Shown piece after piece: positions 1 through 41,761 of a stretch of 64,000 nucleotides of DNA. The notes beneath the pieces were generated by a model that did no database searches, had not been told where the DNA came from, and saw only the letters and a list, made by a program, of their open reading frames with translations. Numbering within the stretch: the first letter of the stretch is position 1; each line of letters starts with the position of its first letter. Source of the stretch: Escherichia coli (GTDB taxonomy: Bacteria > Pseudomonadota > Gammaproteobacteria > Enterobacterales > Enterobacteriaceae); the NCBI RefSeq assembly GCF_036507355.1, contig NZ_AP027877.1; one strand, given 5' to 3'. The position numbers were made by a program, and so were the translations under genes.

Positions 1-160
1 TGACTATTAAAAAAGCGGCACCGCCCATTAGCGCCAACGTTAAGTATTTTTGTGCGTAACGATTGCGACGCGGTTCAAAAGGATTATTCGGTCTGCCAAT
101 GCGACTGATCGCTCCGTGACCAATTTTACTGTTATTTCTTGATTTGCGTTTTCTGGCCAT
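1..160 (-). CDS. 5' portion of an ORF that runs off the window start (possibly yjfM-like); candidate ATG at 160, N-terminus MARKRKSRNSKIGHG...
   Basis: Only minus-strand frame open from 169 down to position 1; ATG at 160-158 with a weak GGA upstream; start choice uncertain (alternative ATG at 28). Confidence 0.25.
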   Translation of the reverse strand, partial: MARKRKSRNNSKIGHGAISRIGRPNNPFEPRRNRYAQKYLTLALMGGAAFLIV

Positions 161-569
161 GATCGTCCATTACCATGTCATACATGGCTGCGTTAAAAAT
201 ACCACCAGCCAGTGCGGCGGTTCCCATAAACATTCCTGCTGCGGTATTGTGATTAATAATTTTTTCGCTTAATGCGGGCATATAAAGTCTGACACCAGCA
301 AAAACGAGTAACTGAATCACTAGTGCAATCCCGCCCCAGGCGAAATAGTCTGGAATACTCACCGCATTGATTGCCGCACTGGATAAGGGGATCACGTAAC
401 CCAACAATGTACCGCTGAATGCCAGTGACGCCGCGGTATTATTGTTTTTGATTAATTGCCATTCGTTGTGCGGTGTAATTTTGGAGTAGATAAACAGAAA
501 AATAATCACCATAGCCACGCCAATAAAAAAATAGGCACTAAAGGCAAGAAGTGAATCCAGTATATGCAT
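132..569 (-). CDS. yjfL: YjfL-like DUF350 inner-membrane protein, if translated independently from the internal ATG at 569 (MHILDSLLAF...)
   Basis: Internal ATG at 569-567 followed by multiple hydrophobic segments; lies in the same frame as the upstream yjfK-like part. Confidence 0.4.
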   Translation of the reverse strand: MHILDSLLAFSAYFFIGVAMVIIFLFIYSKITPHNEWQLIKNNNTAASLAFSGTLLGYVIPLSSAAINAVSIPDYFAWGGIALVIQLLVFAGVRLYMPALSEKIINHNTAAGMFMGTAALAGGIFNAAMYDMVMDDHGQKTQIKK

Positions 570-1244
570 TGTAAACGTCCTTGTAATTAACCAATAATAT
601 GAAGTGATGTCAGCGGGATATCGACACCCAGCGCGCGAAAATAACCACTCTGGCTCGCCGAGATCGTTAAAAGATTCCTCACCATTTAACAGCAAATATT
701 CGTAAGTATCTTCGGTCACTTGCCGCTGGTAACCCATGGTAAAATTATGGACTTCCCATTTGGCATGGTTTTGATTTTCTACTTTTTCCAGCATGTAGAC
801 GGGTTCGATATTTCCCGGTTCTTCGCTGTTAAAAAATCGCTGCCAGCGTTTTTCCTGCCAGTTTAAGGTCATTGCCCCCATCGCTTTGGCGTTGATCGCC
901 TCGCGCCAGTGACTCTCTTTACTGATACCGTAGCTCTCTTCATAGACAAAGAGCTTGATATCATCAATGTCATCAATATCTTCGCCGCCGGTGGTATTGA
1001 TTTGCAGAAACTCATCGCCTGAAGTGTAGTAGCGGAAAATCTGGCTACCGCCGCCCAGATCGATGTGACTGACAGCGGCTACCGTAAATTCCTCACCCGG
1101 CAGCGCAATCAGCAATTCATCTTCCAGCAAACGAAACGCTAACGTGTCGAGCGTAAAGCCACTATTAAGATGAAGGCCCAGCGGACCGCGAGCGATTGCA
1201 GGCTTATTATCCTTGCCAAACAGACGCTGGAAAAAACCAGACAT
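132..1244 (-). CDS. yjfK: YjfK-like (DUF2491) protein fused in-frame to a YjfL-like (DUF350) inner-membrane domain; single 370-aa ORF
   Basis: Track ORF MSGFFQRLFGKDNKP...; the N-terminal ~205 aa match YjfK as I recall it and the C-terminal part is hydrophobic and YjfL-like; no stop codon between them. Confidence 0.6.
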   Translation of the reverse strand: MSGFFQRLFGKDNKPAIARGPLGLHLNSGFTLDTLAFRLLEDELLIALPGEEFTVAAVSHIDLGGGSQIFRYYTSGDEFLQINTTGGEDIDDIDDIKLFVYEESYGISKESHWREAINAKAMGAMTLNWQEKRWQRFFNSEEPGNIEPVYMLEKVENQNHAKWEVHNFTMGYQRQVTEDTYEYLLLNGEESFNDLGEPEWLFSRAGCRYPADITSYYWLITRTFTMHILDSLLAFSAYFFIGVAMVIIFLFIYSKITPHNEWQLIKNNNTAASLAFSGTLLGYVIPLSSAAINAVSIPDYFAWGGIALVIQLLVFAGVRLYMPALSEKIINHNTAAGMFMGTAALAGGIFNAAMYDMVMDDHGQKTQIKK

Positions 1245-26100: not shown

Positions 26101-26501
26101 TTACCGAGCAGTTTATTAACTGGTCGCTCTCTGACTCGGTTACGCGCGTGGTGTTGACGATTCCGGCCCCTGCCGATGCCAACAGTGAAGAAGTGACGGA
26201 AATCCTGCTCACCGCAGCGCGTCGCTGCTCGCTGGTGATCGACAACCCGGCACCGGAAGTCTTCCTGGTGGATCTGCAACAGGGGATTCAGATTTTCGAG
26301 CTGCGTATTTACGCCGCTGAGATGGGTCACCGTATGCCGCTACGCCATGAGATCCACCAGCTGATTCTGGCTGGCTTCCATGCTCACGGTATCGATATGC
26401 CATTCCCGCCCTTCCAGATGCGTCTGGAAAGCCTCAACGGTAAACAAACGGGGAGAACGCTGACGTCTGCGGGCAAAGGTCGTCAGGCGGGAAGTTTGTA
26501 A
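23178..26501 (+). CDS. mscM: Miniconductance mechanosensitive channel MscM (YjeP)
   Basis: 1107-aa ORF with signal peptide, long coiled-coil periplasmic region, multiple TM helices and a C-terminal MscS-like domain; GTG start. Confidence 0.92.
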   Translation: MRLIITFLMAWCLSWGAYAATAPDSKQITQELEQAKAAKPAQPEVIEALQSALNALEERKGSLERIKQYQEVIDNYPKLSATLRAQLNNMRDEPRSVSPGMSTDALNQEILQVSSQLLDKSRQAQQEQERAREIADSLNQLPQQQTDARRQLNEIERRLGTLTGNTPLNQAQNFALQSDSARLKALVDELELAQLSANNRQELARLRSELAEKESQQLDAYLQALRNQLNSQRQLEAERALESTELLAENSADLPKDIVAQFKINRELSAALNQQAQRMDLVASQQRQAASQTLQVRQALNTLREQSQWLGSSNLLGEALRAQVARLPEMPKPQQLDTEMAQLRVQRLRYEDLLNKQPLLRQIHQADGQPLTAEQNRILEAQLRTQRELLNSLLQGGDTLLLELTKLKVSNGQLEDALKEVNEATHRYLFWTSDVRPMTIAWPLEIAQDLRRLISLDTFSQLGKASVMMLTSKETILPLFGALILVGCSIYSRRYFTRFLERSAAKVGKVTQDHFWLTLRTLFWSILVASPLPVLWMTLGYGLREAWPYPLAVAIGDGVTATVPLLWVVMICATFARPNGLFIAHFGWPRERVSRGMRYYLMSIGLIVPLIMALMMFDNLDDREFSGSLGRLCFILICGALAVVTLSLKKAGIPLYLNKEGSGDNITNHMLWNMMIGAPLVAILASAVGYLATAQALLARLETSVAIWFLLLVVYHVIRRWMLIQRRRLAFDRAKHRRAEMLAQRARGEEEAHHHSSPEGAIEVDESEVDLDAISAQSLRLVRSILMLIALLSVIVLWSEIHSAFGFLENISLWDVTSTVQGVESLEPITLGAVLIAILVFIITTQLVRNLPALLELAILQHLDLTPGTGYAITTITKYLLMLIGGLVGFSMIGIEWSKLQWLVAALGVGLGFGLQEIFANFISGLIILFEKPIRIGDTVTIRDLTGSVTKINTRATTISDWDRKEIIVPNKAFITEQFINWSLSDSVTRVVLTIPAPADANSEEVTEILLTAARRCSLVIDNPAPEVFLVDLQQGIQIFELRIYAAEMGHRMPLRHEIHQLILAGFHAHGIDMPFPPFQMRLESLNGKQTGRTLTSAGKGRQAGSL

Positions 26502-26607
26502 TGCATGAAGCTGCCAAATGATGTCAACGTGGCTCATTTAGCAGCTTAACATCATCTTCAGTTATCACCAGCCCCGGAGAATATCATCCATACGCATTAC
26601 TTCCTGA

Positions 26608-26636
26608 CAACTCATCGCCGGAGAGACGATGAGTTG
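26608..26636. terminator. Perfect 10-bp stem hairpin between the convergent mscM and yjeM (possible bidirectional terminator)
   Basis: caactcatcg-ccggagaga-cgatgagttg; no clear U-tract on either side. Confidence 0.3.
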
Positions 26637-26651
26637 CAGGATTTCATAGGA

Positions 26652-28154
26652 TCAGTCGAGAGCCAGTTCAGGTTTGTTCGCCATGCGACTGCAATAGTTC
26701 TGGTAAATCGCCATCGCTAACAGCGAGAAGAAGACAGGGCCGCCAATCATCCACAATGTGCTGTCCCAGTCTCCGGCTTCAACCACAGGCTGAATAATGG
26801 TGAAGACGTTCGCAAATGTCACCACCAGAACGACAACCACCGTCGCAATCATTGCCGACATACGCGTTTTGAAAATCACAAATGGTCTGTCGAGATCCTG
26901 ACGTGCTTTAAAGAATGGGAAAGCCAGCGCGAGGAACAGGTAAGGAAGCGTCATAGACACGTTCGCCATCAGCGTCAGCTTGTTAAAGAACGCCGATGCG
27001 GTACCGCCACCAAACGAAACCAGCAGGATGAAAACAGTAACCAACCCGCACTGCATCCACATGGCGATAGACGGCATCCCCATCGCATTCAGGCGCGTCA
27101 TCGGTTCCGGCCACAACGCTTTCGGCGTCCCCTGGATGATGGCTTTCAGCGGTGAATAGCAAAGCGTAAAGAACGCACCGGTATAGGCGAGGAACATCGA
27201 AAGTCCGGTAATACGCGCAAACCATACGCCCAGCGACAATGACGCTTCAGGTGACAAATGCAGTGCGTTACCCAGCGTCACCCCGAGGCTCTTCATCAGC
27301 ACATAGGTAATATTGCCAAGGTTAACGGAACCATTACTTAATACCTGCTGCCAGTTTGTGCTGACGCCCCATAAAAATATTGCCAGCGAATAACCGATTG
27401 AAATAACAATAGCGGCAAAAACAATACCTTTGGCAAAGTTCTTTTCTGGATTTTCCGTTTTATCGACCAGACCACCAACCGCTTCAATTCCGCCATAGGC
27501 AAAAATAGCAAATACCACAAACGATAGCATTGCCAGACCGGACTGATAACCCGGGTTCGGTGATGCAAGGAAATTAATATCCTGCGCGAAATGCCCACCA
27601 TTTAATAACAAAATAGTAATGCTTACTAACAGCAATACTAAATTCAGACACATTACTGCAATACCGCCCACCGCAGTAATGCGGGCAATTTTATTAATCC
27701 CCTTAGAAGCAACGACGGTGACCAGAATCATCCATGCCACTGCCAGCAGACCAACCACCTGCGTAGGCTCCAGTCCGGCAATACGCCAGTGCTGGGTCAT
27801 GTCGCTACCATAGAGGAATGTTGAGAACGGTACCCAAACTTTCGCGGAGGTACTCACCATCCAGATGATATAAGAGGAAAACCACATAAACGTACCAATG
27901 AAGGCAAAACGTGGTCCGACACTATTATTCATCCAGGAATAGATACCACCTTCTTCTTTGCGATAAGCAGCTCCCATTTCAGCCATCATTAAGGCGAATG
28001 GAATAAAGAATAACAATGCAGAAAATATATAAAAGGGAATCGCACTATAACCCATTAAGTAATAAGCCGATGGGCTATTGGCAAATCCAAATACGGAAGT
28101 AAAGATCATCAATATGAGTCCTATCAGACTCATCTTTTTTATCGTGTGAGGCAT
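26652..28154 (-). CDS. yjeM: Inner-membrane APC-family transporter YjeM
   Basis: Track ORF trimmed to the ATG at 28154 (MPHTIKKMSLIGLILMIFTSVFG..., 500 aa); polytopic membrane protein. Confidence 0.88.
   Translation of the reverse strand: MPHTIKKMSLIGLILMIFTSVFGFANSPSAYYLMGYSAIPFYIFSALLFFIPFALMMAEMGAAYRKEEGGIYSWMNNSVGPRFAFIGTFMWFSSYIIWMVSTSAKVWVPFSTFLYGSDMTQHWRIAGLEPTQVVGLLAVAWMILVTVVASKGINKIARITAVGGIAVMCLNLVLLLVSITILLLNGGHFAQDINFLASPNPGYQSGLAMLSFVVFAIFAYGGIEAVGGLVDKTENPEKNFAKGIVFAAIVISIGYSLAIFLWGVSTNWQQVLSNGSVNLGNITYVLMKSLGVTLGNALHLSPEASLSLGVWFARITGLSMFLAYTGAFFTLCYSPLKAIIQGTPKALWPEPMTRLNAMGMPSIAMWMQCGLVTVFILLVSFGGGTASAFFNKLTLMANVSMTLPYLFLALAFPFFKARQDLDRPFVIFKTRMSAMIATVVVVLVVTFANVFTIIQPVVEAGDWDSTLWMIGGPVFFSLLAMAIYQNYCSRMANKPELALD

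Positions 28155-40093: not shown

Positions 40094-41761
<1,668 letters not shown>

Follow-up and report, generated by a model that had tools for sequence, protein, structure and literature searches.

Loss of 2 bp joins yjfK to yjfL in a rare Escherichia coli lineage that also carries a second frameshift at the yjfL 3′-end

In the 64,000-nt stretch of Escherichia coli DNA analyzed here (the window; assembly GCF_036507355.1, contig NZ_AP027877.1), yjfK and yjfL were read as one 370-aa open reading frame (ORF) on the minus strand, with no stop codon between the YjfK and YjfL parts, as an earlier note on this DNA had reported. Two frameshifting indels were found in the ORF, a 2-bp deletion near the 3′-end of yjfK and a net +1 change near the 3′-end of yjfL (Table 1). 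It is quite likely that these are a genuine inherited pair of mutations and that the long ORF is a by-product of frame geometry in the course of gene decay, rather than a designed fusion. The joined gene is an ordinary lineage-specific disruption with a published Salmonella precedent, and it does not represent a new kind of protein.

Table 1. Features of the yjfK-yjfL region of the window.
Feature	Position	Strand	Remarks
Fused ORF, 370 aa, 41.7 kDa, no internal stop	132..1244	-	identical to BED24104.1, 'hypothetical protein VEE46_38720 [Escherichia coli]'
YjfK residues 1-205	630..1244	-	amino acids identical to K-12 YjfK; DUF2491 model positions 1-197 of 210
2-bp deletion site at (CG)n tract	630..637	-	GCGCGCG at plus-strand 631-637
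20-aa frameshift linker GCRYPADITSYYWLITRTFT	570..629	-	yjfK tail in yjfL frame plus former 17-nt spacer
Out-of-frame yjfK stop TAA, inside linker	587-589	-	
Intact yjfL Shine-Dalgarno AAGGA, inside linker	578-582	-	
YjfL residues 1-128 (DUF350, 4 TM)	186..569	-	amino acids identical to K-12
Native yjfL ATG	567-569	-	
Perfect inverted repeat CCATGT-ATG-ACATGG	173..187	-	made by T>CA (net +1) at 185-186
Novel 17-aa tail MYDMVMDDHGQKTQIKK plus stop	132..185	-	in place of conserved CMTW and stop
Old yjfL stop, now out of frame	170-172	-	
yjfM 5′ part (DUF1190)	1..160	-	ATG at 158-160

The fused product consists, in order, of YjfK residues 1-205, the linker GCRYPADITSYYWLITRTFT, YjfL residues 1-128 (fusion residues 226-353), and the new 17-aa tail. 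Two Pfam families were detected in it: DUF2491 (PF10679) at residues 4-203 (E = 3.7e-67; model coverage in Table 1) and DUF350 (PF03994) at residues 229-354 (E = 4.9e-31, model positions 3-132 of 133). An NCBIfam scan of the 370-aa fusion returned 0 families. In K-12, yjfK (219 aa, as stated in the earlier note) is a gene of its own, with 17 nt between it and yjfL (132 aa), and separate YjfK (219-227 aa) and YjfL (132 aa) proteins, the latter retaining the CMTW tail, were found in E. fergusonii, Salmonella, and Citrobacter. Reversion of the indels in silico gave proteins 100% identical to those of K-12. The GCGCGCG tract, the TAA and ATG codons, and the alternative frame (RALGVDIPLTSLHIIG followed by a stop) were all located where the earlier note had placed them. 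That note had also assigned the last approximately 145 residues to a YjfL-like domain; 128 of these are YjfL, but the final 17 (MYDMVMDDHGQKTQIKK) are due to the second indel, at approximately 185-186, which it had missed.

Alignment to the reference yjfK-yjfL sequences placed a 2-bp deficit exactly at the tract. Codons 205-206 of yjfK are TTTTCGCGCGCGTTGGGT in K-12 and O145 and TTTTCGCGCGC--TGGGT in the window, and the references do not form one contiguous ORF. When the 2 bp were added back, a 219-aa YjfK 100% identical to that of K-12 was obtained, followed by a separate yjfL, as had been anticipated. Three alleles of the tract were distinguished: CGCGCGCG-TT (the majority), CGCGCGCG-CT (48 genomes), and CGCGCGC-T (the window). 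The 2-bp deletion was absent from the 4,959 matching complete RefSeq E. coli genomes, in which the best match reached 97.6% (81/83 columns), and a scan of JGI metagenomes for the GCCATGTATGACATGGTAATGG allele gave 0 matches.

The TCGCGCGCGCTGGG allele, in which Leu206 is CTG, was found at 100% identity in 48 complete genomes only, and the genomes carrying it were farther from the window than the nearer genomes were (32 vs. 17 differences over 1,348 bp). The TCGCGCGCGTTGGG allele (TTG) was present in every nearest relative examined (KL53, HH107, ESDR8, EC1515, O145, and K-12) and also in the three contigs with the same yjfL insertion. Relative to the TTG allele, the event is a deletion of 'GT' at the 3′ edge of (CG)4 with no loss of a repeat unit, whereas relative to the CTG allele it is the exact loss of a whole repeat unit. 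The slippage of a GC unit proposed in the earlier note was therefore borne out in part: loss of 2 bp from the tract explains the fusion, but the loss is a clean one only against the CTG allele of the 48 genomes. A CTG ancestor for the deletion is possible because the outgroups (E. fergusonii, Salmonella, and Citrobacter) have CTG or CTC as the Leu codon; the closest complete-genome relative (99.0% over yjfK) is too distant to polarize TTG vs. CTG. Slippage as the origin of the deletion is plausible but unproven. A template-switch origin was also considered for this deletion and was dropped, as no inverted repeat with a stem of at least 5 bp was perfected by it.

The second change lies four codons before the yjfL stop. 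In the alignment with K-12 and O145, the references have GCAGCT-TGTATGACATGG and the window has GCAGCCATGTATGACATGG, that is, a T>CA replacement with a net gain of 1 nt. As a result, the conserved CMTW and stop are exchanged for MYDMVMDDHGQKTQIKK and a new stop, and the novel tail overlaps the start of yjfM by 29 nt. In a sister contig (L004), yjfM is intact (212 aa). The +1 change at full length was absent from all matching complete RefSeq E. coli genomes. No full-length E. coli match was found to a GCC-TGT allele, from which the change would be a simple +A, nor is there any record of the reverse intermediate, in which the fusion would keep the native CMTW tail (357 aa).

In other E. coli, the left arm at this site is CTTGT and the repeat is only a quasi-palindrome, in which only TGT and ACA pair; in the window, a perfect 6-bp stem (CCATGT/ACATGG) with a 3-nt loop is present. 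Within the 69-nt context, the longest perfect stem was 4 bp in the reference and 6 bp in the window. RNA minimum free energies were -0.7 kcal/mol for the reference and -7.9 kcal/mol for the window. Stems of at least 6 bp resulted from 13 of 832 (1.6%) comparable random 1-to-2-nt replacements in the same context. The 145-aa YjfL′ was also found as a separate gene, adjoining an intact 219-aa yjfK, in three other contigs representing two unrelated haplotypes. The window lineage and two of the contigs (L015 and L016) are mutually approximately 1.6% divergent, approximately the same distance as that of K-12 and O145 from the window, and in L016 and L017 the identical GCCATGT is flanked by differing SNPs at distances of 18 nt (upstream) and 29 nt (downstream). 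Because T>CA perfects the inverted repeat and recurs on different haplotypes, the evidence points to quasi-palindrome template-switch mutagenesis, which seemingly has arisen more than once. Recombination over a very short tract is an alternative explanation for the recurrence.

Template-switch mutation at quasi-palindromes is the subject of the Ripley and Lovett models. A quasipalindrome-associated template-switch mechanism in E. coli is described in PMC7202029. As in those mutations, an imperfect repeat (C-TTGT/ACATGG) became a perfect one (CCATGT/ACATGG) in one complex step; the present case differs in that it comes from natural isolates and its mechanism is deduced from sequence alone. The yjfL 3′ change would be a tidy natural example of this mutagenesis, and the yjfL stop region is a possible natural quasi-palindrome mutational hotspot in wild E. 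coli. No report of this region as a mutational hotspot was found in the literature.

In the reference, a shift of the -2/+1 class leads from yjfK into the yjfL frame, and this frame has no stop between yjfK codon 193 and the yjfL ATG, a distance of 99 nt. Thus, any shift of the -2/+1 class within the last approximately 27 codons of yjfK gives a read-through fusion. The same geometry explains the fusion in S. Enteritidis, in which yjfK is joined to yjfL by loss of 11 bp, again ≡2 mod 3, from the yjfK 3′-end (PMC3220660, PMC4454671). In the window, 2 bp are missing at the 3′ edge of (CG)4 in yjfK codons 205-206, and a ribosome moving past YjfK residue 205 therefore reads the 20-aa junk linker, crosses the old stop and the spacer, and enters yjfL in frame. 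A separate T>CA change perfects the quasi-palindrome and exchanges CMTW and its stop for 17 new residues, so that the ORF ends 29 nt inside yjfM. The expected outcome would be a crippled YjfK and a fused YjfL that inserts poorly, with YjfL still made from its own ribosome-binding site (RBS) and ATG. Programmed frameshifting was rejected, as there is no sequence sign of it and every other genome has two genes.

The YjfK segment that was lost (LGVDIPLTSLHIIG) holds G207 and D209, 2 of only 11 columns that are invariant among 28 homologues (down to approximately 31% identity). The AlphaFold2 model of YjfK (pLDDT 90.4, pTM 0.85) is confident in its C-terminal strands, and mapping of the frameshift onto this model showed β-strand 198-209 truncated and strand 215-218 deleted. 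The window diverges after residue 205 and does not have a complete DUF2491 with the C-terminal (L/V)G(V/I)D motif and the terminal β-strands. Its 370-aa ORF also lies outside the size range of stand-alone YjfK (approximately 216-232 aa). Most of the 80 YjfK-family clusters are single-domain proteins of that range, the exceptions being sporadic chimeras, truncations, and N-terminal extensions. Because the invariant G207 and D209 and the terminal strands are gone, YjfK is probably crippled, and the model suggests that the fused protein is probably non-functional or destabilized in its YjfK part. A Foldseek search of the YjfK model against the PDB gave no match at E ≤ 0.001 (TM-scores of approximately 0.2) and no functional clue.

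In YjfL, K and R residues are located in loops 1 and 3 only, an arrangement for which TM4 was assigned by eye after a crude hydropathy script had missed it. By the positive-inside rule, both YjfL termini are predicted to be periplasmic. Because the predicted N-terminus is periplasmic, YjfL insertion should be impaired when 225 cytoplasmic residues that lack a signal peptide precede it. The yjfL spacer and Shine-Dalgarno sequence are identical to those of the reference, and the ATG is intact. Because the Shine-Dalgarno sequence and ATG are untouched, YjfL′ (145 aa, 15.8 kDa) can probably arise independently from the retained RBS and ATG. The DUF350 match is essentially complete, although the CMTW tail is lost.

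The exact 370-aa product (BED24104.1, from a 4.64-Mb E. coli contig) was found on 6 contigs, including GCA_905398585.1, SRR17480487, and SRR31122001. These three contigs were 100.000% identical to the window over the shared 3.4-4.2 kb, and SRR17480487 and SRR31122001 each differed from GCA_905398585.1 by 1 downstream SNP, one in yjfM and one in aidB. Because each SRR contig has its own SNP, the three contigs are separate genotypes, 1-2 SNPs apart, of one lineage. No complete genome is closely related to this lineage: the best identity was 98.6% over the locus and 99.2% over the 20 kb next to it. Both indels are derived and rare alleles, found together in one rare E. coli lineage. Frameshifting indels were found only in yjfK (-2) and yjfL (+1) among 46 window genes (48 K-12 genes compared). 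A mutator hypothesis was considered and rejected; mutL is located in the window but is intact, and the 46 genes have no other frameshifts.

Outside the two indels, YjfK and YjfL show no amino-acid change relative to K-12, and the six SNPs that set the window apart from five aligned genomes are all synonymous. Because of this identity and the purely synonymous SNPs, either the frameshifts arose late on the branch or the product is still under constraint. The same data give no sign of prolonged relaxed selection, and the allele persisted through some diversification (three genotypes); both observations fit poorly with simple decay.

That the fusion is an error of assembly or sequencing at a GC tract prone to slippage, an option that the earlier note had left standing, is scarcely credible. 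Some sequencing platforms do have difficulty with palindromes and dinucleotide tracts, and the source assembly is outside the RefSeq complete set searched (best identity, 98.6-99.2%), but the identical sequence occurs in three or more other independent samples or assemblies with SNPs of their own. The presence of the exact product on 6 contigs, with three genotypes 100% identical in the overlap, refutes an assembly error. The 46 window genes without another frameshift, and the recurrence of the yjfL change in the three other contigs of two unrelated haplotypes, also speak against an artefact. The chance that the (CG)n tract is a contingency locus, at which phase variation switches yjfK-yjfL between a separate and a fused state, is similarly minute. 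A dinucleotide repeat does lie within the coding 3′-end, and in the CTG allele the alternating run is 9 nt long; against this, the tract has only 4 units, its shortened form was found in none of approximately 5,000 complete genomes, all sister isolates are in the same state, and against the nearest alleles the change does not amount to a clean loss of one unit.

It is also unlikely that the fusion is a functional two-domain 'Rosetta-stone' protein, kept by selection, in which YjfK cooperates with YjfL or acts on it at the membrane. Such a protein would accord with the co-operonic, co-regulated state of the two genes (PMC12492005, PMC11237479), with the three independent fusions of YjfK to YjfL that are known (the window, E. 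coli cluster P0016, and S. Enteritidis), with the fixation of the allele across three genotypes, and with the unchanged protein sequences outside the indels. However, invariant YjfK residues and terminal strands are lost, the linker is frameshift junk, and the predicted periplasmic N-terminus of YjfL would clash with a cytoplasmic domain that has no signal peptide. Moreover, no conserved DUF2491-DUF350 architecture was found among the 80 YjfK-family clusters, which extend from Enterobacterales to Endozoicomonas and include only sporadic E. coli lesions of this kind, and fusions are expected from any +1/-2-class shift in the last approximately 27 yjfK codons. That the repeated joining in the window, P0016, and S. 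Enteritidis reflects selection for tethering or altered stoichiometry in a PspA-family envelope-stress/polyamine operon seems to us quite improbable; if true, this would be a natural Rosetta stone, with the uncharacterized β-protein YjfK acting directly on a DUF350 membrane protein. The ORF should be annotated as a frameshifted yjfK joined to yjfL and not as a new two-domain family, and it calls for no 'correction' of an assembly error. For phenotyping, the lineage is a natural source of a yjfK C-terminal mutant.

The closest known counterpart is the fusion in S. Enteritidis PT13a 21027 and LK5 (Guard et al. 2011; Matthews et al. 2015). Both cases involve a deletion ≡2 mod 3 at the yjfK 3′-end, both result in one fused ORF, and both are strain-specific or lineage-specific. 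The Salmonella 11-bp deletion also removes the yjfL ribosome-binding site, whereas the E. coli window keeps the RBS and ATG and has a 2-bp loss at (CG)4 plus an extra +1 at the yjfL 3′-end. Compared with stand-alone YjfK and YjfL (PMC11237479), residues 1-205 and 226-353 of the fusion are identical to K-12 and the yjfI-yjfJ-(K-L)-yjfM-yjfC context is kept, but the two proteins are joined, and the YjfK C-terminal LGVD...IIG and the YjfL CMTW tail are missing. A further natural lesion joining yjfK and yjfL in E. coli arose independently: P0016, a 290-aa YjfK(1-168)-YjfL(11-132) fusion found on 6 contigs. In contrast to the window, it is due to a larger in-frame deletion, which removed 51 + 10 residues and the spacer, and it has no frameshift linker and retains the native YjfL tail.

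The operon encodes YjfI (CesT/Tir-like), YjfJ (PspA family), YjfK (DUF2491), YjfL (DUF350, 4 TM), YjfM (a DUF1190 lipoprotein), and YjfC (an ATP-grasp ligase) (PMC11237479), and the 'YjfJ iModulon', consisting of yjfIJKL, shows increased expression in heat-evolved E. coli (PMC12492005). The yjfIJKLMC operon, for which links to heat adaptation and to envelope stress responses of the PspA type have been described, appears dispensable and has been damaged repeatedly in Escherichia and Salmonella lineages; the lesion in the window is a further natural case. Internal stops in yjfJ (Q26 to stop) and yjfM occur in the two genomes closest to the window at yjfK, KL53 and HH107, and HH107 has an IS1 in yjfK as well. 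Other chimeras among the E. coli clusters were YjfJ-YjfK (P0019) and YjfK-YjfM. In the protein database, a truncated 199-aa E. coli YjfK was represented by 15 contigs, and a variant with a 15-aa in-frame deletion was also present.

The T>CA change at the 3′ end of yjfL produced a perfect inverted repeat (see the table). The same change was present in three other E. coli contigs (L015, L016, and L017), which represent two further haplotypes that are approximately 1.6% divergent and have an intact yjfK. The yjfL 3′ site may be a natural hotspot of quasi-palindrome template switching. The (CG)4 tract, the reference form of the repeat at the yjfK deletion, was found at three other places in the window. 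Of the window's genes that were compared with K-12, only yjfK and yjfL were frameshifted; the K-12 stretch used for this comparison ends before the two (CG)4 tracts outside the amiB region.

No close relative of this lineage was found among 5,426 complete RefSeq E. coli genomes, a set that excludes the source genome itself (locus-tag prefix VEE46, 4.64 Mb). The best identity was 99.2% across 20 kb and 98.6% across the yjfK-L locus. The closest complete-genome relatives at yjfK were KL53 and HH107, both of which carry internal stops in yjfJ (Q26*) and yjfM; yjfK of HH107 is additionally interrupted by IS1. In the KL53/HH107 lineage, this operon is thus undergoing its own, independent decay. Further sporadic lesions of this gene cluster are on record in the protein database (proteins P0016, P0005, P0022, P0019, P0044, P0063, P0057, and P0076, from the YjfK-family search), and their types are included in the table.

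Features of the window and protein-database lesions of the yjfJ-yjfM gene cluster
Feature	Window position (strand)	Description	Source
yjfL 3′ inverted repeat	173-187 (-)	CCATGT-ATG-ACATGG	
(CG)4 tract, amiB region	15932	CGCGCGCGC	
(CG)4 tract	56383		
(CG)4 tract	58654		
Between yjeM and mscM	~26500-26670	No counterpart of K-12 yjeN or yjeO	
groL 3′ end	40094-40165 (-)	9-bp in-frame insertion vs. K-12	
YjfK(1-168)-YjfL(11-132)		In-frame fusion	Protein database
YjfK		Truncated to 199 aa	Protein database
YjfK		15-aa deletion in DIDDIDDI repeat	Protein database
YjfJ-YjfK		Chimeras	Protein database
YjfK-YjfM		Chimeras; one cluster has 67 member sequences and only 76% identity to the query	Protein database

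An all-β fold was confidently predicted for K-12 YjfK (model m7daa987045f6, pLDDT 90.4), and a Foldseek search with this model returned no significant PDB neighbors (top TM-score around 0.2). An outer-membrane porin role has been suggested for YjfK (PMC12492005), but the sequence shows no signal peptide that would support this assignment.

Other differences from K-12 were observed in the window. The alignment of yjeM ended 19 nt short of the 3′ end of the K-12 gene. At groL, the C-terminal tail of GroEL gains one GGM unit, with a protein length of 551 aa vs. 548 aa in K-12.
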